Virus record (IMG/VR): IMGVR_UViG_3300033498_000048
Location: 32,001-96,000 of that record
From: a virus
Taxonomy: Duplodnaviria; Caudoviricetes
DNA: 64,000 nucleotides
Reading direction: 5' to 3' (one strand)
Made by a program: the position numbers and the translations under genes. The notes beneath the pieces were generated by a model that was not told where the DNA came from, did not search any database, and worked only from the letters and a program-made list of their open reading frames with translations. Of this stretch, positions 17,458 to 60,386 are shown piece after piece (within the stretch, counting starts at the first letter, position 1; each line of letters opens with the position of its first letter).

Positions 17458-19329
17458 ATGGCAGACCAATATTACAATAATGTTCAATTTGCATTAAGTT
17501 TAAATGGAGACTTCTTAGATTGGAGTAAACATAACAGAAGTGTAACAATTGATTCTGGAATTATAATGTCAAATAGTGTTATTAAATATGGTTCATATTC
17601 AGCCTATTTTCCAGCTGCTGTTAGTAGAACTATGTTGATAGATTACATTGATTGGACACCAAATACCGATGATTATACTATAGAGTTTTGGATAAATGCA
17701 ATAAAAGCAAGTTCACCAGCAAATGTCTTTTTAATTGGACAATATAGAGATTCCAATAACTTTTGGAAACTATACCTAAATTCAATTAATAATGATGTAA
17801 TATTGACATCATCCTCTGGAACCACCATTACAGCATCAAATTCATTTTTAAACAATTGGAATACATGGAATCATGTTGTAATGGTTCGGTATAATTCAAT
17901 TACCTCAATTTACATTAATGGTGCTGTAGTATTAACTGGAAACTTTACTATACCTACAATCAATGAACCAATTTTAATTGGAGGTTTACAACATTCAGGG
18001 ACTAATGAGTTCTTTGTTGGATATTTAAGTGATATTAGATTCACTAAAGGGATAGCAAGATATACATCTAATTTTAATGTCCCAACACAATTATTAGAAC
18101 AATCATCATTAAAAACAGTTTTGATTCAAACTATAGATTCAATTAGTTGCATTAATCCACAATGTAACTTTGATGTTTATATTGTAGGCTCTGGTAAAGT
18201 TAAATCATTTGTTAGTAATAGTTATGGGAACATTGTAATTAAAGTTCCAGAGGATGTTGTTGTCGAATTAACTGCGTATGCTACTGGATATAAAAAAGCC
18301 AGATTAGAGTTTAAATCATGTCCTGATGTCGTTACATTGAACTTAAATAGAATAGTTAATTCAAATTCTGATACAATACAACAACTATTACCATTAATAT
18401 ATTTTTCATGTGAAAATGATTCCAATGGTATATTAGCCAATTCTGGAATTACATCTGGACAAATGTCATTATTGAATACCAATTATATTACAAAATTAAA
18501 TAGTTTGATTTATGGAATTTATTACCAATTATCAGATACAATTGAACTGAATCCGATTAATAATGGTTGGACTGGTTTAAATGGATTAACTGATAATACA
18601 ACAGGCTACCAAAATATCACAACGACTGGAGGTAGCTATTGTTTTTGGGTAAAACCTACCAAATCAATTGTAATTTATAACGAGTCAATAACTGGAAATT
18701 ATGCTGACAATTTAGACCAAAGATTTTTAATTACTCCAGAATACAGTATTAACAACGTGTTTTATGGAATATCAATAGGCATTAATGGCATTCAATTTTA
18801 TATGCGAAAGGGAACAACCTTTTCTCCAGTATTAACTTGGATTAACGATTTGTCTAATTGGAATCATATTGTATTAACGATTAATTCAAATGGAGTTCCA
18901 ACATTATATATGAATGGAATATTCATTAAATCGACAAATTATGTTCCAGTTGGTGATAGGTATCTGGGATTAAACATTGGAACAGATACCAGTGGAAATA
19001 GACATTCATTTGCTGGCTCATTTACTGATATGTGTTTATTCGGTTATGATGTTAGTATTCCAAACATTAATAGAATAATGAATAGTCAATTGAAATATAA
19101 AATACAGGGAAAGGTTGTAGATTCAAATGGTAATGTTAAACCAAGTATAATTAGAGCTTATTCACATGAATCTGGAGAGTTAATTGGTGAATGTACAACA
19201 GATATTGATGGGGATTATGTCTTGATAACAAGTTCAAATGTTGCTAGTTATGTTACCTGTTTGCAATTAGATTGTGATGATATTTCAAGTGAAGGAATGA
19301 TTTACACTAATGTCATTCCTTCGTTATAA
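17458..19329 (+). CDS. LamG/concanavalin-repeat virion protein (fibre / receptor-binding candidate)
   Basis: Two LamG-like repeats (YTIEFWI..WNHVVMVR..YING..SDIRFTKG); C-terminal KIQGKV..IRAY..G module. Confidence 0.8.
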   Translation: MADQYYNNVQFALSLNGDFLDWSKHNRSVTIDSGIIMSNSVIKYGSYSAYFPAAVSRTMLIDYIDWTPNTDDYTIEFWINAIKASSPANVFLIGQYRDSNNFWKLYLNSINNDVILTSSSGTTITASNSFLNNWNTWNHVVMVRYNSITSIYINGAVVLTGNFTIPTINEPILIGGLQHSGTNEFFVGYLSDIRFTKGIARYTSNFNVPTQLLEQSSLKTVLIQTIDSISCINPQCNFDVYIVGSGKVKSFVSNSYGNIVIKVPEDVVVELTAYATGYKKARLEFKSCPDVVTLNLNRIVNSNSDTIQQLLPLIYFSCENDSNGILANSGITSGQMSLLNTNYITKLNSLIYGIYYQLSDTIELNPINNGWTGLNGLTDNTTGYQNITTTGGSYCFWVKPTKSIVIYNESITGNYADNLDQRFLITPEYSINNVFYGISIGINGIQFYMRKGTTFSPVLTWINDLSNWNHIVLTINSNGVPTLYMNGIFIKSTNYVPVGDRYLGLNIGTDTSGNRHSFAGSFTDMCLFGYDVSIPNINRIMNSQLKYKIQGKVVDSNGNVKPSIIRAYSHESGELIGECTTDIDGDYVLITSSNVASYVTCLQLDCDDISSEGMIYTNVIPSL

Positions 19330-26062: not shown

Positions 26063-26070
26063 CATAAATA
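26063..26070 (+). promoter_or_regulatory. Late promoter variant CATAAATA
   Basis: 30 nt upstream of ATG 26101. Confidence 0.55.
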
Positions 26071-26100
26071 ATTCAATTAAACTTATTTTAAGGATATACT

Positions 26101-29100
26101 ATGCTACATGAAAATAGCTTATATGTTGACAACATTGCATCTAGGAAAGAAATTTTAAAAAATAAAACTAAAGTGATGGACACATTGATGTTTAATTACT
26201 TCGGGTTTATAGCATTACTTGCCACAAAGCCATCAGACTCAGGTATATTAAAAACATATAAGAATAAAGATAAGTCCGTTAGTTTGGACAAAATAGATTA
26301 TTCAAATAGCGACATTTGCATATCAATACTTTTAGCTATTGATTCTGGTATTATTGATGATTCCATTGCTGAAAAGATGTTGACATTGTTTTCAAAGCTG
26401 CGAAATGGAATCATCAATGCTGATAACTTTGATAATAATAGTTTAATAAACTTGTTAATAAAAACCAAGTATCAAGTTAATAAACCATCATCCGCAATAT
26501 TATCAATTGTGGATTCATATACTGGAAATGGTGATATTAATCAATTTGTATTAGACTTGGTTGAAGCAGCAAATAATTCCAAATATAAAGACTTAACGTC
26601 TGAATTTAGAGCTGTCACTAAACTTGTGTTTAAATATGACACACTACCAGATGATGTTTCAATGCCAACTAAAGCAATTGTTGCAAAGGGAACAATTGCT
26701 CGCGCCCAACAATTAGCAAGGGCGGAAGCAGGTGCTGAAAAGTATGAACAAGATACATTTAATAATAGTTTGAAAACTGCTTGGACAGAGGTTAAAGCAA
26801 ATAGTCCAGCTCAATTTGAAATATTCTACAAACTATCCAGCGTTAAAGAAATGGAAGAGTTTGTAACCACACATCCAATATTTGATATTGATAAGTTTGT
26901 GGTGTGGTTAAATGTTACTTACATTAAAAACCAATTTCCAGCTGAAAATACAAATGTTTTATATGATTATCTATTTGGATTATTCAAAACAGAAAGAAAA
27001 ACACATTTTGATGTTATTGGAAAACTATTAGTGGATAAAATATCTTATTATTCCCAATCAATGTCAGTTGATGATATAGTAAAAACATTCGGTGTATTTA
27101 AGCCATCTAATAATATATTGGATTCATCTATAACAAGTGCAATGGAATCAGTTGCAGATTTAGTTCTTGACCATTTAGTTCACAAGTATGAAACTATAAC
27201 TCCAGCCAACTTTAAAGAACTTAAAGATTATACTACAAATTGTATTCGTTTGTTGTCTAATTATGGAACATCCGTACATAGACGATTAGGTGATGTGATA
27301 GCCCAATTATTAAAATCTATGGGTACTAATCAGTCCAAGTCTAATGATAGTGCTAGGGCATTTTGTTCATTATATTCTACTGGTGTGATTTATATTGATG
27401 TCCAATCTAGTAAATACACAAGATATTTAATTGAATTTCTAAATAATTATTTTGAATACGATGTGTTACAATCACAGAAAAAGTTTAATGTGAGTATATA
27501 CGATAGCTTATATCAATTGATGTCACAAGACCAACGGGATTTAATCGACATTCTGAGAATGTCCATTTCATATAAAGTTGAGTTAGTTGTTGTTCCTGAA
27601 TATGTGAGGTTAAAGGATTTATTCGATGGGGTTATTGCTAATGAATCTACACTTGATAGCTTAGTAAAGAATTTAGCATCTTATAGGTTGAACGATAATG
27701 ATTATGCTAAGTTTGTTGAGAATAGTAGAAGATACATTGTGACTGGATATGATAAATTCATGGACATATACCCAACATTAATCAATTCTAATAACAATAA
27801 TCCAAATACAATTGGAATGGTTGTTAGATTGTACAAAGATTTATTCACATCACTAAAAGATAATCCAATACCAAGTACAACTAAATCAAAACGTGTTATA
27901 ACAGATATAATTGAGCGTATGGCGAATTTGTGTGAACATGAAAAAGATTACACCATATTAAATACAATATTTGATTCAGTAAACATATCTGATTTATATT
28001 CAATAGCTAGTTTATTGTCCGATGATACTAAGTACATATTTTATACATGGATTAATAATAAGGCAAATGTTGATATTGATTTCCAATCATCTATTGTTAA
28101 TGGAACACCAGATACTTTAAGTGGATTTGTAGATTCAATTATATACAACCCACAAAATACTTTTTTGATAGAATCATTAGATGTAGCAGTTAAGTTTGTC
28201 ACTATGTTTTTATCTGATAATCCGTACACATCTGATGGAATGTCTGAAATTCCAGACTATATGATTAGGTTATACAATAAACACCCAACATTAAGAGATG
28301 TAATATTAAATAAAATTCTTACAGATTCAACATACAAGTTACTTGAAGCTGCTATCAATATGTATAAAGAAAGTGTGTTTTCGTTATTGTTAAATGCTAA
28401 TGGAAAATTGATTCCAGATGATAAAACAACTAATTATATTGTGTCTTATATTAGAGCTAATATTTCAAACATACCAAGCCTTGAATATTTTAAGGGTTCA
28501 GATTATATATTAAATGTGATTAGTAATGAAATAAAATCACAAGTTATCACTAAAGTACAATTAGCTCCAGAAGAATCACTTGCATTACTATCAAGTCAAG
28601 CGTGTGATGTTGATTTATTAAATGATATACTCACAGACACTGATATTGTAAAATCTTACAAAGAATATATCACGACATCACCTGAAATATTTTCTACCAA
28701 TATGCACAAAATATTCAATAAAGTAATAACACATCCACATAATGTTAATATGAATACTGCGAATAACTTATTGAATGTGATTAAACATTTTGAATCAAAC
28801 AAATCACTATTGAAATCATCAGAAAGGAACTCACTTGTAAACTTATATTTTGAAATTGTGATTAACATATATTTAAAACAACCTGAGTCTGCTGATATTA
28901 TTTTTGATAAAGTTGGAACTAAAATGCAACAAAGTATGTTAGAGTACGTTGAACAATTTGCATTTGTAGAGTCAGCAATGAAGTCAATTACATCGGATTC
29001 TAATCCTATAAAACCTATGATTAAACTCGATAGAGATAAAATATGTAGTGTATTAGCTATTAACAGAATTAAACTTCCAGAAAACACCAAAGTTGAATAT

Positions 29101-30093
29101 ATAAAGGGAATGAAATTAACTGATATGTTAAAAAAAGGTGGAGTTCAACCAGAAAATAACATAATCACTGATTTACAATTAACCCCAAAAACAAAAACAA
29201 AAACGGAGTTAGAAGAACTATCAATCGAATACGATAAAAAGTTTAATAATAAAAATGAAAGTGGACAATATTCATATATGTTTATGGACGAATATGATGT
29301 GAGAATCCAACTGCAAGCTGATGGAATAAAAAAATTCATAGAAAACAATCCAGATACTGAGATTATGGACATAGCGTTCCACGGTACTGGAACACTAGCA
29401 GCTAGTATGATTTTACGTTATGGATTCAATGTTATTACAGAACAAATGGCAGAAGAATCTGGAGTAAAATTTGCAGGTAGAAGTTTGGGTGATGGTATTT
29501 ACTTTTCAGATGCGATTGATAAAGCTGGTTCTTACGCTTATGACAATGATGCCACAACCGATGGTTTAGGTGGATATATATTCATTATGAAAGCTGCTTT
29601 GGGACATAAAGGAAAACAATATCAAACATATAAAGGTTATAATAACGAGTGGTGTGTATTCTTTCCGAATGAACAATTGATGATTTATAAGGCATATAGG
29701 ATTAAAGCTGTTAATCCTGGAACATTTAGTAGAATTGTTGCGAAACACAAATTAAAAGAAAATTACACTGGCTTCACAACGTTTGCAAACTTCATAAACG
29801 AAGCTGAACTTATCCAATCAGATAACATCCAACAAAACGGTGATGCTATGGGAACTATAAAGCTAATTTTTATGGATGGTACATTGCCTTTAAATAATGA
29901 TGTTACAATTGACTCAACATCATTTAGAGTTGACGATGACAAAGCTTCAATAGTTAAAACAATGCGTGGAACAGAACTAACAATTAATGCGAATAATAAC
30001 GTGAATATATCACACAAAATTCCATTTACCAAAACCTTTATGGTTAGACATCCAGAATTATTAAAACTTGTATTGGGTGTAATTAAACAATAA
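26101..30093 (+). CDS. Large putative virion-injected protein with PARP-type (H-Y-E) ADP-ribosyltransferase domain
   Basis: FHGTG...ILRYGF, GRSLGDGIYFSDAIDKAGSYA, YNNEWCVF; late promoter; AAGGA RBS; L-H-E N-terminal and I-N-E/A internal protease-like sites. Confidence 0.8.
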   Translation: MLHENSLYVDNIASRKEILKNKTKVMDTLMFNYFGFIALLATKPSDSGILKTYKNKDKSVSLDKIDYSNSDICISILLAIDSGIIDDSIAEKMLTLFSKLRNGIINADNFDNNSLINLLIKTKYQVNKPSSAILSIVDSYTGNGDINQFVLDLVEAANNSKYKDLTSEFRAVTKLVFKYDTLPDDVSMPTKAIVAKGTIARAQQLARAEAGAEKYEQDTFNNSLKTAWTEVKANSPAQFEIFYKLSSVKEMEEFVTTHPIFDIDKFVVWLNVTYIKNQFPAENTNVLYDYLFGLFKTERKTHFDVIGKLLVDKISYYSQSMSVDDIVKTFGVFKPSNNILDSSITSAMESVADLVLDHLVHKYETITPANFKELKDYTTNCIRLLSNYGTSVHRRLGDVIAQLLKSMGTNQSKSNDSARAFCSLYSTGVIYIDVQSSKYTRYLIEFLNNYFEYDVLQSQKKFNVSIYDSLYQLMSQDQRDLIDILRMSISYKVELVVVPEYVRLKDLFDGVIANESTLDSLVKNLASYRLNDNDYAKFVENSRRYIVTGYDKFMDIYPTLINSNNNNPNTIGMVVRLYKDLFTSLKDNPIPSTTKSKRVITDIIERMANLCEHEKDYTILNTIFDSVNISDLYSIASLLSDDTKYIFYTWINNKANVDIDFQSSIVNGTPDTLSGFVDSIIYNPQNTFLIESLDVAVKFVTMFLSDNPYTSDGMSEIPDYMIRLYNKHPTLRDVILNKILTDSTYKLLEAAINMYKESVFSLLLNANGKLIPDDKTTNYIVSYIRANISNIPSLEYFKGSDYILNVISNEIKSQVITKVQLAPEESLALLSSQACDVDLLNDILTDTDIVKSYKEYITTSPEIFSTNMHKIFNKVITHPHNVNMNTANNLLNVIKHFESNKSLLKSSERNSLVNLYFEIVINIYLKQPESADIIFDKVGTKMQQSMLEYVEQFAFVESAMKSITSDSNPIKPMIKLDRDKICSVLAINRIKLPENTKVEYIKGMKLTDMLKKGGVQPENNIITDLQLTPKTKTKTELEELSIEYDKKFNNKNESGQYSYMFMDEYDVRIQLQADGIKKFIENNPDTEIMDIAFHGTGTLAASMILRYGFNVITEQMAEESGVKFAGRSLGDGIYFSDAIDKAGSYAYDNDATTDGLGGYIFIMKAALGHKGKQYQTYKGYNNEWCVFFPNEQLMIYKAYRIKAVNPGTFSRIVAKHKLKENYTGFTTFANFINEAELIQSDNIQQNGDAMGTIKLIFMDGTLPLNNDVTIDSTSFRVDDDKASIVKTMRGTELTINANNNVNISHKIPFTKTFMVRHPELLKLVLGVIKQ

Positions 30094-30104
30094 GATGTTG
30101 TTTT

Positions 30105-30141
30105 ATAGCATCGTTCCGTTAGTTACTTGGAACGATGCTAT
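30105..30141. terminator. Bidirectional hairpin terminator between convergent genes
   Basis: Perfect 13-bp stem atagcatcgttcc/ggaacgatgctat, 11-nt loop. Confidence 0.75.
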
Positions 30142-30149
30142 TGTGTTGT

Positions 30150-30416
30150 TTATCTGATTCCAACTTCACTAGGGAAGAATGCGTTATAGCGATTGAAAAA
30201 TGATTTAATCACATTTTTATTAGCATTAGTTATTTCAAATTTGACTGTTCCACCTAAAAATGTAATTGAAAGGTGATATAGTCCATCTTTAACAGAACAA
30301 TTGAGTATTAACTTAAACTCAGTTGGACGAACAATTGTAACTAAGTCGTTAGACATAAAATCAAATTCACCATTTTCGCCTAAAATATTTTGGAAATGTT
30401 TAAATAAGTCTTTCAT
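30150..30416 (-). CDS. Hypothetical protein
   Basis: 88 aa, operonic overlap. Confidence 0.65.
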   Translation of the reverse strand: MKDLFKHFQNILGENGEFDFMSNDLVTIVRPTEFKLILNCSVKDGLYHLSITFLGGTVKFEITNANKNVIKSFFNRYNAFFPSEVGIR

Positions 30417-55164: not shown

Positions 55165-56733
55165 ATGACAGATTTATACACAGAAAACATAACACTCAAT
55201 ATGCGATTTGAAGGAACAAACAATTCCACAACATTCGTAGATGATTGTGAACAAGTTTTTATTACAAATGGAAATGCCAAACTCAGTAATGCTAAACAGA
55301 AATATGGAACAACATCTGGGTTCTTTGATGGTAATGGAAGTTATTTGTATCTGGCTGGAAATAATATATTTAATTTATCATCCGATGATTTCACTATTGA
55401 AGCTTATGTGAATTTGATTGCAATGCCAACTTCAGATGCTTGGCCCAGCAACTATTCTAATCACATGGTTATATGTGAAACAGGTTCTCCAAATGCTAGT
55501 GATGGTTTTGCATTCTTTATGGGAACTACTAAGTTGTTTTTGATGTCCAATGACCCTGTTATTTTCAGTGCAACACACAATATGGTAATTAACACTTGGT
55601 ATCACGTTGCTGTTACTAGACAGGCTAATACGATGTATATGTTTGTTAATGGAACGTTAATTGGCACTGATACATGGGCTGGAACTTGTGGTACTGGGTC
55701 TGAAACATACATTGGTTGTGAAACAGGACAAGGTGCGTGGTTTAATGGTTATATAGATGAATTGAGGGTAACAAGAAAGATAGCAAGATATACTTCAAGT
55801 TTCACTCCAATACAAATTGATACATTATCAAGATTACAATTTAGTCCAGAATTATATAATTCAAATGTTGTATTAAACCTTAGAATGGATGGAAACAATG
55901 GCTCGAATGTGTTTTATGATGATACAAACCTTAATTCAATTTCTGTTAGTAATGCAATACTATCAAATGTCCAGTCTAAGTATGGAACAGTATCTGGATA
56001 TTTTAATGGTAGTTCATATTTACAATTGACTGCTAATAGTGGATTAGATTTAAGTACAAGCGATTTTACAATTGAATTTTGGTGTTATTGTAATGATAGT
56101 CCAAATTCATACCCATCATATATTACATCTGGAACTACTTGGGTATCTGGCTCATTTGTTATTAGATTTGATGATACTAGATACCCAAGTAAATTTGTTG
56201 TTGCGTGGAATCCACTTGGAGATACATTTTTACTAACCCCAACTACCTTTTCATACAATCAATGGAGACACGTTGCAGTAGCTAGAGATGGTAAACTTGT
56301 AAGGTTGTTTATTGATGGGGTTATACAAGCAACTAACACAGTTACAGTATCACAAACGTTAAATCTTGCATTTGGTGGATATATGCGAATTGGGTACAAT
56401 TACTTGGATGTTACTAATGGTTACATAACAGACTATATGGATGAAGTTAGAATCACAAAGGGAGTTTGCCGTTATAAACGGAATTTTATTCCAAATAGAA
56501 TTGGTGGATATAAAACCATATCAGGTGTTGTTAATTCATCTAGTGGAATGTCAGTTGCTAATGTGTTGGTTAGGTTATATTCAAATACGGATGGAAACTT
56601 AATCAAATCAACATATAGTAATTTTGATGGAACATTCACATTTACTGGTATGTGGACTGGAGATTATTATATAACTTGCCACTATGATGATTATCCTAAT
56701 ATTATTTTAAATAAAAAGGTTTCAATAGCATGA
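55165..56733 (+). CDS. LamG-repeat virion protein
   Basis: Two repeats KYGT.SG.F.G..DFTIE..WYHVAVTR..GYIDELRVT; C-terminal TISGVV..VRLY..G module; GGAG RBS. Confidence 0.85.
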   Translation: MTDLYTENITLNMRFEGTNNSTTFVDDCEQVFITNGNAKLSNAKQKYGTTSGFFDGNGSYLYLAGNNIFNLSSDDFTIEAYVNLIAMPTSDAWPSNYSNHMVICETGSPNASDGFAFFMGTTKLFLMSNDPVIFSATHNMVINTWYHVAVTRQANTMYMFVNGTLIGTDTWAGTCGTGSETYIGCETGQGAWFNGYIDELRVTRKIARYTSSFTPIQIDTLSRLQFSPELYNSNVVLNLRMDGNNGSNVFYDDTNLNSISVSNAILSNVQSKYGTVSGYFNGSSYLQLTANSGLDLSTSDFTIEFWCYCNDSPNSYPSYITSGTTWVSGSFVIRFDDTRYPSKFVVAWNPLGDTFLLTPTTFSYNQWRHVAVARDGKLVRLFIDGVIQATNTVTVSQTLNLAFGGYMRIGYNYLDVTNGYITDYMDEVRITKGVCRYKRNFIPNRIGGYKTISGVVNSSSGMSVANVLVRLYSNTDGNLIKSTYSNFDGTFTFTGMWTGDYYITCHYDDYPNIILNKKVSIA

Positions 56734-59700
56734 CAGTAAATTATACTGATATTATTAATAATGATAATCCATTATGGTATTACCCATTACAAGATGTGTC
56801 TGGTCCAAACCTAATGGAATCTAATGGAAAAAGCTTTGCAACATCAACATCAATTGTATGTGAAACTAAAATGGATAACACAGCAATTTTTAATGGGATT
56901 AAATTTGATGGAACCAACTCAACTATTGTATTACCATTCACAACAAACTTTTTAGAGTTTTCTATTAGTTTTTGGTTGATTCCATTAACTGGCTCACAAT
57001 CTGGTGGAAGTGTAATCGGTCATCGAGATTTTATTGTGTTTCCATTTTCAATATCATTATCACAAGACGGAACACAATTAACATTTAGTTTAGATACGGG
57101 AAAAGATACATTAACTGATTTGAATTTAGTTGTTAATGTTATTCCAGATAAATTGTATCATATTGGATTCACACGCAATTCAATTAGTGGATTAAATTCA
57201 ATTTACTTAAACGGTATATTAGTTTCAACTGGAATATTAATTGGTACATTAGCATTCTATTCAGGGAATTGGATGATAGGAACATCGAATGAATATGGTG
57301 GAGGTGTTGGTACATCAAAAGGTAAGTTTATTATTAGCCATGTTTCATTTTTCGATTATGTTTTAACAAATGTACAATTCCAGAATCACTATTGGAATGG
57401 AATATCTAATGTGTATGTGAACGATTCATCTACAGTTAATGATGAACATTTTAATAAGGTTGAATTACTAACACATTGTGAACAATTGAATACAATAGCT
57501 GACCCATACCTAAAAAATGTGTGTTTGTTATTACATTTTAATGGACAAAACAACACTTCTGAATTTAAGGATGTTACAAACAAACAAATAGTTCCAATTG
57601 GTAATGCTTATATGAGTACAACTCAAAAAAAGTTTGGAACATCGTCTGGTTATTTTAATTCAGATTCTAAATTGCATATTACACATAAAGATTTTAATTT
57701 TGGATTAAATGATTTTACAATTGAGTTTTGTTTTTATTTACCAACTACAATTACCGTTGATAACTTTTCTTATATGTTTGATTTTAGAAACAATGTTACA
57801 CCTAATGGTGGATTATATTGTTATGTTGATTCCAATATGATATTGAAAGTTGTTGCAAATGGAATAACCATTAGCTGTAATACCACATTAACTATTAACA
57901 ATTGGTATTCAATTGTGGTTTGTAGAGATGGTGAAGCAGTAACAATATTTAATAATGGAATAATTGATATTGTGTCTCCAATGTCAGTTGTATTATCGAA
58001 TGATACATTAAATATTGGTGGTCCATATCAATATCAAGGAAACCCATCATTTCCAGTTTATATAGATGAATTTAGGGTTACAAGGTTATTATCAAGATAC
58101 AGATATGATTGTGACATTAGTGTTCCAATATCAGAATTTCAATATCAAATTGACTCAACCTACGATGGTTATAGTGGATATACAACATTAAGTATGGATT
58201 TCAATTACCCTAAAATTTGTGAGTTAGCTAGAAACGCAATTGTAATTCCAGTTAATTTTACATTAAGTAAAAATCAAATTAAATCTGGAACATCGAGTGG
58301 GTATTTTAATGGAGTGAACTCATATATTGAGTTAGCTAATATAGTAGATTATAACTTATCACATTTTGATTTTACAATTGAACTCGATATACATTTAATT
58401 GGTCATTCTAATACTGGTAATTCAATATTGGTTGCTAAAGGTAGTGAATTTACATTTTATATAACAGAAACAACTATCACAATTCAAGGATTCAATACAA
58501 ACTCAAATCAATCAATAGTTGGAGCATTCATATTCCAATTAAATACTTGGTACAATATTGCAATATCAAGAATAGGGAATGATTTGTTCATATATGTAGA
58601 TGGCAATATTGTGAATACGCAATCGTTTTTTGATATTGAACTTAATATAACAAATAGTCCACTACGAATTGGAGGTAATACTGAACACTTTTTTAATGGT
58701 TATATTGACAACTTTAGGATAACAAGAGGAATATCGAAGTACAATAAACGATATGTTCCAATGAAATTATTACCAATATTCCAACAGGGTATAACATCAA
58801 ATAAGTCACTCCAGTTTAATACAACCCAACGATACATATCTAGTTCAATAAAACGGTTTAAGAAAACTTCAATGTTGTTTAATAATTCAAATGGGTATTA
58901 TGATAAACAAATTGACTTCAGCAATAAAGACTTCACTATTGAACTATGGTACTATAAAATTGCAAATGGTGAAATTAATTCGAGATTGATACAAACTTCT
59001 AATGGTAGTACAATGTCTTCTATAGCACTAATTGATAATGTAAATGGAAGTCTATCATTTGCTTGTAGTATTGATGGTACAACATGGGCTAATGGTACAT
59101 ATCCACAAATATGTACATTAGTATTAGGTGTATGGAATCATATAGCAATCACTAGATGTGCTGGTGATGTATCAGTGTGGATAAATGGTATTTCAATGTA
59201 TTCATATAACATTGGAACATCAAGTTTATATTTCAATTCAAGCACGGATAAAATCTATATTGGAGGTGTTCCAGGAAATTCAATACACGGTTATATTGAT
59301 GATATTAGAATAACGTTAGGTGTTGCCAGATATAATAATAATTTTACTATTCCACAATTTGAATTTCCTGATTCAACAACATACACGCATTACTATAACA
59401 AGTATGATATGAATTTTAAACAGGTTGCGTTCCTATTGGGTGGAACTAATACAATAATTGATTGTAGTGTTAATAATATCGAATTAGTCTTATATGGTAA
59501 TTCCATCGCATTAACAACTGAAAAAACTGTGTTTGGAAAAAGTATTAAATCTACAAATCAATCTGATTACATCGTAACTAATGCACGTCAAGAGTTAAGG
59601 TTTAATAATTCAGATTTTACAATTGATTGCTGGATATTACCTATGACATCTTCCAATTCAATTTTATTAGATGGTCGACCAACAAATACTAATGGTGAAT

Positions 59701-60386
59701 ACCTTACAATCGGTATTAATGATAATAAACTTGAATTGATTAGTGGAGGTGTGATTATATTAACTAGCAATATTACAATTATTCCACTAACATGGAATCA
59801 CATATCAATTACTAGGTTGAATGATGTTATCACAATGTACATACAAGGAATAAAAGATACGTCCACTATATTCCATAACCAATTTAAACAAGATAGGTTT
59901 ATAATACTTGCATCAGCATACAACACTGGAGTATCAAATACATTTATAGGGTTTATTGAAGATTTAAGAATATCTCTTGGGATATGTAGATATATTGGTA
60001 ATTTTGAATTACCAACAAGTAGTTATTTAAAATCGAGTGATTTGGCATGGACACCATTTACTCCAATTGTAAATGACCCTAATGATATTGTGATTACGTT
60101 TCCAATGAATTGGGTTAATAATGAAGTATTGGATCCAGATAATATATTAATTAGTTTTGCTGGGTATAAGTTTACTGGTAAAGCATTGAAGGATGATTAT
60201 ACCCCAGCAAGTTTAGTTAGTATTCATAGTGAAGATGGAACTGAATATTATACACAAATTCCAGAACAAGTTACTGGTGCTTATTCTTTTTCCAATTTAC
60301 ATTATAAACTATATTACATAACAGTTGATTCGTCTGGAGATTACTTACCACATACTATCGGTCCAGTTTATCCAGATTTAATGTAG
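56730..60386 (+). CDS. Large multi-LamG virion protein (fibre / receptor-binding candidate)
   Basis: About five LamG repeats (DFTIE..WNHI.ITR..YIDD.RIT.G..RY); coupled to the upstream gene. Confidence 0.85.
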   Translation: MTVNYTDIINNDNPLWYYPLQDVSGPNLMESNGKSFATSTSIVCETKMDNTAIFNGIKFDGTNSTIVLPFTTNFLEFSISFWLIPLTGSQSGGSVIGHRDFIVFPFSISLSQDGTQLTFSLDTGKDTLTDLNLVVNVIPDKLYHIGFTRNSISGLNSIYLNGILVSTGILIGTLAFYSGNWMIGTSNEYGGGVGTSKGKFIISHVSFFDYVLTNVQFQNHYWNGISNVYVNDSSTVNDEHFNKVELLTHCEQLNTIADPYLKNVCLLLHFNGQNNTSEFKDVTNKQIVPIGNAYMSTTQKKFGTSSGYFNSDSKLHITHKDFNFGLNDFTIEFCFYLPTTITVDNFSYMFDFRNNVTPNGGLYCYVDSNMILKVVANGITISCNTTLTINNWYSIVVCRDGEAVTIFNNGIIDIVSPMSVVLSNDTLNIGGPYQYQGNPSFPVYIDEFRVTRLLSRYRYDCDISVPISEFQYQIDSTYDGYSGYTTLSMDFNYPKICELARNAIVIPVNFTLSKNQIKSGTSSGYFNGVNSYIELANIVDYNLSHFDFTIELDIHLIGHSNTGNSILVAKGSEFTFYITETTITIQGFNTNSNQSIVGAFIFQLNTWYNIAISRIGNDLFIYVDGNIVNTQSFFDIELNITNSPLRIGGNTEHFFNGYIDNFRITRGISKYNKRYVPMKLLPIFQQGITSNKSLQFNTTQRYISSSIKRFKKTSMLFNNSNGYYDKQIDFSNKDFTIELWYYKIANGEINSRLIQTSNGSTMSSIALIDNVNGSLSFACSIDGTTWANGTYPQICTLVLGVWNHIAITRCAGDVSVWINGISMYSYNIGTSSLYFNSSTDKIYIGGVPGNSIHGYIDDIRITLGVARYNNNFTIPQFEFPDSTTYTHYYNKYDMNFKQVAFLLGGTNTIIDCSVNNIELVLYGNSIALTTEKTVFGKSIKSTNQSDYIVTNARQELRFNNSDFTIDCWILPMTSSNSILLDGRPTNTNGEYLTIGINDNKLELISGGVIILTSNITIIPLTWNHISITRLNDVITMYIQGIKDTSTIFHNQFKQDRFIILASAYNTGVSNTFIGFIEDLRISLGICRYIGNFELPTSSYLKSSDLAWTPFTPIVNDPNDIVITFPMNWVNNEVLDPDNILISFAGYKFTGKALKDDYTPASLVSIHSEDGTEYYTQIPEQVTGAYSFSNLHYKLYYITVDSSGDYLPHTIGPVYPDLM

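Follow-up and report, generated by a model that had tools for sequence, protein, structure and literature searches.

The classic example of an enzyme carried in a phage head to reprogramme the host is the ADP-ribosyltransferase (ART) Alt of phage T4; poly(ADP-ribose) polymerase (PARP)-type enzymes are familiar mainly from DNA repair and antiviral defence in eukaryotes. Alt is located in the prohead core, has both its N- and its C-terminus processed by gp21 and enters the host by ejection (PMC9026906, PMC9958956). Phage PARP-like ARTs ('PARTs' of the HY-[EDQ] clade; Iyer et al.) are listed among the most frequent viral ARTs, and it has been suggested in general terms that phage ARTs are packaged in the head (PMC9503650); PARPs were also reported from a few jumbo phages (PMC7824862). 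The window analyzed here, a stretch of 64,000 nucleotides, represents bases 32001-96000 of the 305,782-bp IMG/VR virus record IMGVR_UViG_3300033498_000048, which has direct terminal repeats and derives from an uncultured 306-kb T4-like jumbo phage. It contains a gene for a large protein, P0001, with a PARP-class catalytic domain in its C-terminal part. P0001 is a further member of the known family of phage PARP-like ARTs, while the putative processing and targeting architecture presented below is apparently undescribed, as far as was found. Together with its relatives, P0001 suggests that a large second family seems to do what Alt does with a different class of enzyme. With a probability of roughly 0.55, P0001 is a late-expressed, head-packaged, protease-trimmed and injected ART of the PARP family.

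The PARP-type catalytic domain

Assignment of P0001 to the PARP family was based upon sequence profiles, alignment and predicted structure. The Pfam PARP model (PF00644) has a gathering cut-off of 26.7 bits; full-length P0001 scored just under this value (25.3 bits), and the C-terminal part scored above it, with 28.2 bits for residues 1030-1330 and 28.5 bits in a six-frame search of the genome. An alignment of P0001 with 17 homologues of 988-1580 aa from a database search (the 18-member alignment) was used for family comparisons, and the PARP model matched 18 of 18 proteins at E<=0.01 (best E 1.2e-08). H1094, G1095, Y1134, F1135, D1140, K1141, Y1145 and E1183 were invariant across the alignment, the H-Y-E residues of P0001 occurring in HG[ST], GIYF and xE[YW]xV contexts that align with PARP1. 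P0001 also has equivalents of K903 and Y907 of PARP catalytic domains, and a DK..Y segment aligns with PARP1. A profile of the C-terminal 300 aa retrieved PARP1, tankyrase and PARP2 chains from the PDB (E 7e-6 to 1e-3) with HG[ST], GIYF and K..Y aligned. The profile was needed for this result, as a search of solved structures with the single sequence yielded only marginal PARP matches (E about 0.2). The PARP-domain match is far beyond chance.

Structural comparison was in agreement with the profile searches. The AlphaFold2 model of residues 1030-1330, generated from the 18-member alignment, had a predicted local distance difference test score (pLDDT) of 81.6, and Foldseek matched it to the catalytic domains of PARP1 and PARP10 with a probability of 1.00. 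Exhaustive VIA-align comparison gave Z scores of 14.6 for PARP1, 14.2 for PARP2, 14.2 for tankyrase 2 and 14.0 for PARP10, with a root-mean-square deviation of about 3.3-3.5 A over 155-162 residues and 14-21% identity. The values for other ARTs of the H-Y-E class were well below these, with 6.0 for diphtheria toxin, 5.5 for exotoxin A, 5.1 for Arr and 4.1 for DarT. Because Z values of 14.0-14.6 stand against values of at most 6.0, the domain belongs to the PARP family in the narrow sense and not merely to the H-Y-E class. A toxin domain resembling diphtheria toxin or exotoxin A was rejected on the same comparison (14.6 vs about 6).

These results can be set beside a preliminary description of the locus, made from the sequence alone, the observations of which were confirmed and the interpretation of which was supported in part. 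It had placed a His, a Tyr (in GIYF) and a Glu (in NEWCVF) in a PARP-like context; the positions are exact for His1094, Tyr1134 and Glu1183, and the assignment to the H-Y-E, PARP clade rather than to the R-S-E class holds. The roughly 1050 residues of helical sequence described ahead of the domain correspond to residues 1-1040, which are all-alpha in the AlphaFold2 model (mean pLDDT 67.6). Likewise, the protease-like site reported after the domain is a real motif, with LKE1220/N and INE1234/A both lying in a linker with pLDDT <50.

An active enzyme is expected because the catalytic and NAD+ loop residues are invariant across homologues and the family is large; judged from these residues, P0001 is very probably an active ART. 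Its loop before the catalytic Glu (residues 1172-1182, window 29614-29646) is approximately 7-10 residues shorter than that of most relatives, and the residues NNEW replace the SPEW of the family consensus; the closest relative, P0002, keeps the longer loop. The H-Y-E triad is necessary but not sufficient for the formation of poly(ADP-ribose) chains, as PARP3, PARP4 and diphtheria toxin are H-Y-E mono-ARTs. From the triad by itself, neither poly-ADP-ribosylation nor NAD+ consumption, both considered possible in the preliminary description, can be inferred for P0001.

Putative head-loading signals and expression context

N-terminal leaders were compared in 56 distinct full-length members (those of the first search plus 46 IMG/VR loci) and, independently, in representatives of sequence clusters. 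In 41 of the 56 members, N-[ST]-[LIF]-Y directly followed a leader of 4-31 aa that ended in [LIV]-x-E, and 103 of 143 representatives in the independent set had a leader of 4-45 aa ending in [LIV(M)]-x-E before the same motif. The longer leaders of the family, e.g. MKFKEFLELQE, MRFEDFIKHLQE and MKTFSELRKQINE, resemble the T4 capsid-targeting sequence (CTS) MKTYQEFIAE. Many homologues have such CTS-like leaders, of 10-22 aa, at the N-terminus, where P0001 has only MLHE. Members of the pf16 subgroup start with ...LLTE/LFNMGSAKGY, close to the start of T4 Alt, which is MELITE/LFDE.

A second set of putative signals was found in the disordered linker following the ART domain, where most family members have two [LIVM]-x-E motifs. 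The motif occurs at the E1234 column in 43 of 56 members and was present in 108 of 148 representatives. The only columns of the family alignment with >=50% conservation of '[LIVM]-x-E' are E4, E1234 and one strand-internal position. The peptide that ends at E1234, TFANFINE (SFKEFIKE and similar in relatives), fits the pattern [ST][FY]xx[FY][ILV]xE, which occurs 10 times in the genome vs 1.3 +/- 1.1 times in shuffles. Seven of these 10 matches are located at residues 3-5 of other proteins and are therefore taken as CTS leaders. The pattern of TFANFINE maps onto residues 4, 7, 8 and 10 of the T4 CTS, of which residues 4 and 7 were shown by experiment to serve targeting and residues 8 and 10 processing (PMC9026906). 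In addition, a gene for a prohead protease of the T4 type is present in the genome (Peptidase_S77; G000:C1:199746-200189, 131.3 bits, E 4.9e-39). The leader peptides, cleavage motifs and protease gene lend comparative support to head delivery of P0001, and packaging and processing are fairly likely on these grounds.

Two further matches to the CTS pattern are internal. SYGEYVLE is found at residue 141 of a 344-aa open reading frame (G000:C1:198544-199578, -) that adjoins the prohead protease gene and possibly encodes a scaffold protein, and SFPVYIDE is found at residue 440 of a 1218-aa repeat-rich structural protein (window 56730-60386, +). The latter is one of three structural proteins (with window 17458-19329 and 55165-56733, both +) that have repeated modules in common. 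The modules match phrog_24074, phrog_3545 and phrog_13163 ('baseplate wedge subunit') and are present in up to four copies in the 1218-aa protein.

The expression context points to a late gene. Within the window, genes for baseplate and virion-type proteins make up the plus-strand islands, and helicase, kinase and small early-type genes lie on the minus strand; the P0001 gene stands alone on the plus strand between minus-strand genes. No sigma-70-like plus-strand site was detected directly upstream of it. The motif CATAAATA precedes its Shine-Dalgarno sequence (Table 1), and genome-wide many TATAAATA sites and approximately 8 of 18 CATAAATA sites are located 20-35 nt before a Shine-Dalgarno sequence and ATG. 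CATAAATA seems to be a variant late promoter, as its spacing equals that of the TATAAATA sites. The homologue of Stenotrophomonas phage Marzo begins with MLLLE/NSLY, and because an annotated terminator and then GATAAATA, at the place of CATAAATA in P0001, precede its gene (L002:3571-3633), it looks like a separate late unit within an early/middle replication block. Late transcription of P0001 is likely given the plus-strand context, the CATAAATA spacing, the Marzo GATAAATA layout and the 3' hairpin; with these features combined, late expression is considered probable, and the strand and promoter-like motif are consistent with the late protein of the preliminary description. One CATAAATA site elsewhere precedes a gene with a CTS-type leader at G000:C1:254852. 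TATAAATA is under-represented in the window, with 5 sites vs 17.7 expected, four of the five being on the plus strand.

Proposed route into the host and its alternatives

According to the proposed route, a helical body of approximately 1000 residues would carry the PARP-family (H-Y-E) enzyme domain into the host. P0001, made late, would enter the prohead core, with TFANFINE as the likely handle, perhaps together with the N- and C-terminal domains. The phage T4-type prohead protease would then cut after Glu4 and after Glu1220 and/or Glu1234, so that the targeting peptide is lost together with the small C-terminal domain. A mature enzyme of approximately 139 kDa (residues 5-1220; mass estimated from length) would stay in the head and be ejected together with the DNA. 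In the host it would ADP-ribosylate host macromolecules with host NAD+ at the start of infection, before phage gene expression, as T4 Alt does. If Alt is a guide, the first candidate for the target is the transcription or translation machinery. From the combined comparative evidence, the balance leans towards P0001 as an injected modifier of the host.

Several points weigh against this route. Passage of a 139-kDa protein through a tail tube requires unfolding or threading, and the N-terminal leader of P0001 is itself not a CTS because it has only 4 aa. The [LIVM]-x-E motif is short, and the case for cleavage draws on conservation and position. The shortened loop before the catalytic Glu and NNEW instead of SPEW could affect the activity of P0001. 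The homologous genes of Marzo and pf16 point in the same direction as early and middle genes there. Furthermore, no assay, structure, virion proteomics, enzymology or other characterization was found in the literature for any family member or phage PARP, including the pf16 and Ps15 members.

Among the alternatives, an ART that is made late and stays in the cytoplasm without being packaged fares best, though it is unlikely. Such an enzyme would act late on host or phage proteins, for example in shut-off, superinfection exclusion or lysis timing, and the Glu motifs would be structural. T4 ModA and ModB are unpackaged ARTs (PMC9503650), the 4-aa leader of P0001 is compatible with a protein of this kind, and proteomic evidence of packaging was not found in the literature. 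However, a leader of variable length before [LIV]-x-E/NSLY is the signature of a removed propeptide, and the internal peptide conforms to the CTS consensus of this phage, other matches to which are found mostly at N-termini.

Somewhat less probable again is a mainly structural part of the prohead core, scaffold or inner body, with an ART acting on phage components or phage DNA ends. The helical solenoid of approximately 1000 aa without enzymatic signatures is consistent with such a role, and a subclade of the family has WGR, the nucleic-acid-sensing module of PARP1-3, in a setting where terminal repeats of the genome imply free ends. P0001 itself lacks WGR, though, and mean column identity is lowest in the helical body (22%) and highest in the ART domain (42%). 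NAD+, moreover, would not be expected in a packed head.

An NAD+ glycohydrolase or NAD+ consumer that drains NAD+ or destroys NAD+-derived defence signals is improbable. Attack of water on the intermediate enables ART folds to hydrolyse NAD+ (PMC9503650), and no NAPRTase salvage gene was found in a search of the genome; yet the closest folds are PARP-clade transferases, not NADase toxins, and an early drain of NAD+ would be expected to harm phage replication. Finally, a pseudo-PARP without catalytic activity, retained for binding, for which the short loop before the catalytic Glu and the existence of pseudo-PARP domains (TASOR and PARP13 matched at Z 12-13) might be cited, is very improbable when the H, Y, Y and E residues and the G-rich NAD+ loop motifs are invariant in 18 aligned homologues and the family numbers 280 representatives at E <= 1e-30.

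Gene layout and comparison with known systems

Features of the P0001 gene and protein are collected in Table 1. The start codon is fixed by an in-frame TAA at 26089-26091, as a result of which P0001 cannot start further upstream, and by the AAGGA that overlaps it. Near-identical DNA was absent from the phage collection (megablast), paralogues of the N- or C-terminal domain were absent from the genome (tblastn), and PHROG scans gave no annotation for the flanking minus-strand genes.

Table 1. Positions of the P0001 gene, its flanking signals and the predicted parts of its product in the window
Feature	Position	Strand	Basis or remark
Late-promoter-like CATAAATA	26064..26071	+	ends 29 nt before P0001 ATG
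Shine-Dalgarno AAGGA	26090..26094	+	6 nt before ATG
Coding sequence of P0001, 1330 aa	26101..30093	+	open frame; matches phrog_18612 at E 3.3e-36
Predicted 4-aa propeptide MLHE, [LIV]-x-E end, then conserved NSLY	26101..26112	+	family comparison
Conserved N-terminal helical domain, aa 5-178	26113..26634	+	best conserved outside C-terminus; AlphaFold2 pLDDT about 85
Disordered linker, aa 179-231	26635..26793	+	pLDDT <50
Poorly conserved all-alpha solenoid-like region, aa 232-1029	26794..29187	+	AlphaFold2 secondary structure
PARP-class ART catalytic domain, aa ~1030-1215	29188..29745	+	Pfam, alignment, AlphaFold2, Foldseek, VIA-align
Invariant residues of the ART domain	H1094 29380-29382; Y1134 29500-29502; Y1145 29533-29535; E1183 29647-29649	+	
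Cleavage motif A, L1218-K-E1220/N (predicted)	29752..29760	+	E1220 nearly invariant; [LIVM]-x-E there in most members; opens disordered linker
Disordered linker after ART domain, aa 1219-1249			pLDDT <50 (model residues 190-220)
Internal capsid-targeting-like peptide TFANFINE1234/A incl. predicted cleavage motif B, aa 1227-1234	29779..29802	+	
Conserved C-terminal beta-rich domain, aa ~1250-1330	29848..30090	+	AlphaFold2 strands, pLDDT about 77-91
Terminator-like 14-bp hairpin + U-rich tail	30105..30155	+	fold energy -22 kcal/mol, z-score -6.15

Outside the ART domain, few assignments were possible. A fold search of the N-terminal 1040 aa (VIA) returned generic helical repeats in all matches (best Z 9.6), and no specific fold family was assigned to this part; Pfam detected nothing in residues 232-1029. 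D1259, P1263 and G1290 of the C-terminal beta-rich domain are invariant in the 18-member alignment. Searches of the ESM Atlas by feature with residues 1-180 and 1235-1330 gave scores below 0.8 and no lead, and in a structure search with a joint model of the ART and C-terminal domains the match list was filled by the PARP domain.

The nearest described proteins are the phage PARTs. For the homologues of phages Marzo, Moby, BUDD, X1 and Ps15, the existing annotation is ADP-ribosyltransferase or PARP catalytic domain protein, and that of Ps15 was called 'the second largest protein' of its phage (PMC9025141). In view of these annotations and the published phage PARP-like ARTs (PMC9503650, PMC7824862), the novelty claimed in the preliminary description was overstated. 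A profile search of a library clustered at 50% identity yielded at least 280 representatives at E <= 1e-30, almost all of 1000-1580 aa with the domain at the C-terminus, and mostly from T4-like phages; the nearest relative of P0001 is 53% identical. The PARTs share the architecture of P0001, i.e. a long helical body, a PARP domain and a small C-terminal domain, and all belong to T4-like myoviruses; their C-terminal 300-400 aa align with P0001 at 28-34% identity. P0001 differs from them in its source, a 306-kb uncultured jumbo phage, and in its minimal 4-aa leader. The architecture of leader, cleavage motifs and internal CTS was not found described in the literature on phage PARP-like ARTs. The family has cultured members (pf16, the Marzo/Moby/Ps15 group, RSP15 and Aeh1-like phages), and for this reason the predicted cleavage sites, internal targeting peptide, activity and mono- versus poly-ADP-ribosylation are directly checkable.

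Eukaryotic PARP1, PARP2, tankyrase and PARP10 (PF00644) have the PARP fold, the H-Y-E triad and GIYF in common with P0001. Unlike these enzymes, P0001 has no regulatory helical domain, WGR, BRCT or zinc fingers, and far fewer residues form the loop ahead of its catalytic Glu; Pfam detected neither WGR nor PARP_reg, the helical regulatory domain, in P0001 at E<=1. Five relatives of 1469-1555 aa (P0004, P0058, P0030, P0052 and P0028) form a subclade with a Pfam WGR at residues ~220-315, approximately 900 aa upstream of the ART domain, where P0001 has a disordered linker. P0044 matches the WGR region of P0004 by phmmer, not by the Pfam model. WGR together with a PARP catalytic domain is the pairing of the DNA-sensing PARP1-3. 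The subclade hints at a virion-borne poly-ART or nucleic-acid ART, which would be a phage counterpart of those enzymes. It is unlikely, on present evidence, that the family is a head-delivered full PARP that makes poly(ADP-ribose) in the host or ADP-ribosylates nucleic-acid ends, e.g. phage DNA termini or host RNA or DNA; if true, a poly-ART or nucleic-acid ART would be known from a virion for the first time, with implications for a phage or bacterial origin of eukaryotic PARPs. Elsewhere in the genome (locus L005, G000:C1:272361-272678, -, outside the window), a 151-aa open frame encodes a stand-alone Macro domain protein (37.9 bits), without a CTS-like leader or an obvious late promoter. Such a protein could remove ADP-ribose marks, and it might work with the ART or against it.

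Polyvalent proteins are defined by the combination of at least two different effector domains on a single chain (Iyer 2017, PMC5512222). These proteins and the ejection protein of cyanophage A4 are large, virion-delivered and have an ART domain, as predicted here, while P0001 has one recognizable effector domain. A polyvalent protein was rejected, PARP being the sole significant Pfam match and the rest of P0001 helical. The cyanophage A4 pre-ejectosome chain 9k3a_B (PDB) has an ART-like domain with a weak match (Z 4.7) to residues 56-181 of the model, and is an independent example of an ART on a virion ejection protein; phage morphotype and delivery route of polyvalent and ejection proteins differ from those of the phage encoding P0001.

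Comparison with T4 extends to logistics. Alignment of the family with T4 Alt by hhalign gave a probability of 0.07, and genome searches with PF03496 (Alt/VIP2) and the Alt protein were empty, although a very divergent R-S-E ART could escape sequence search. Because of these two results, the term 'Alt-like' of the preliminary description stands as an analogy of logistics, not as a family assignment. Alt, an R-S-E mono-ART of the Alt/VIP2 family that is packaged in the head and ejected, resembles the predicted logistics of P0001 in being the product of a late gene with a short propeptide ending in I-T-E. In contrast, P0001 is an H-Y-E enzyme, is twice as long and has no sequence homology to Alt; packaging and activity of Alt were established by experiment, whereas the logistics of P0001 are predicted from its sequence. 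With T4-type CTS cargo, P0001 shares aromatic residues at CTS positions 4 and 7, [IL]-x-E at positions 8-10 and the same protease family. Unlike that cargo, its CTS-like peptide is internal and flanked by two predicted cleavage motifs, and the protein to be carried is a 1330-aa enzyme rather than a small basic protein. If true, excision of an internal capsid-targeting peptide through cleavage at two sites would extend the known rules of T4-type head loading.

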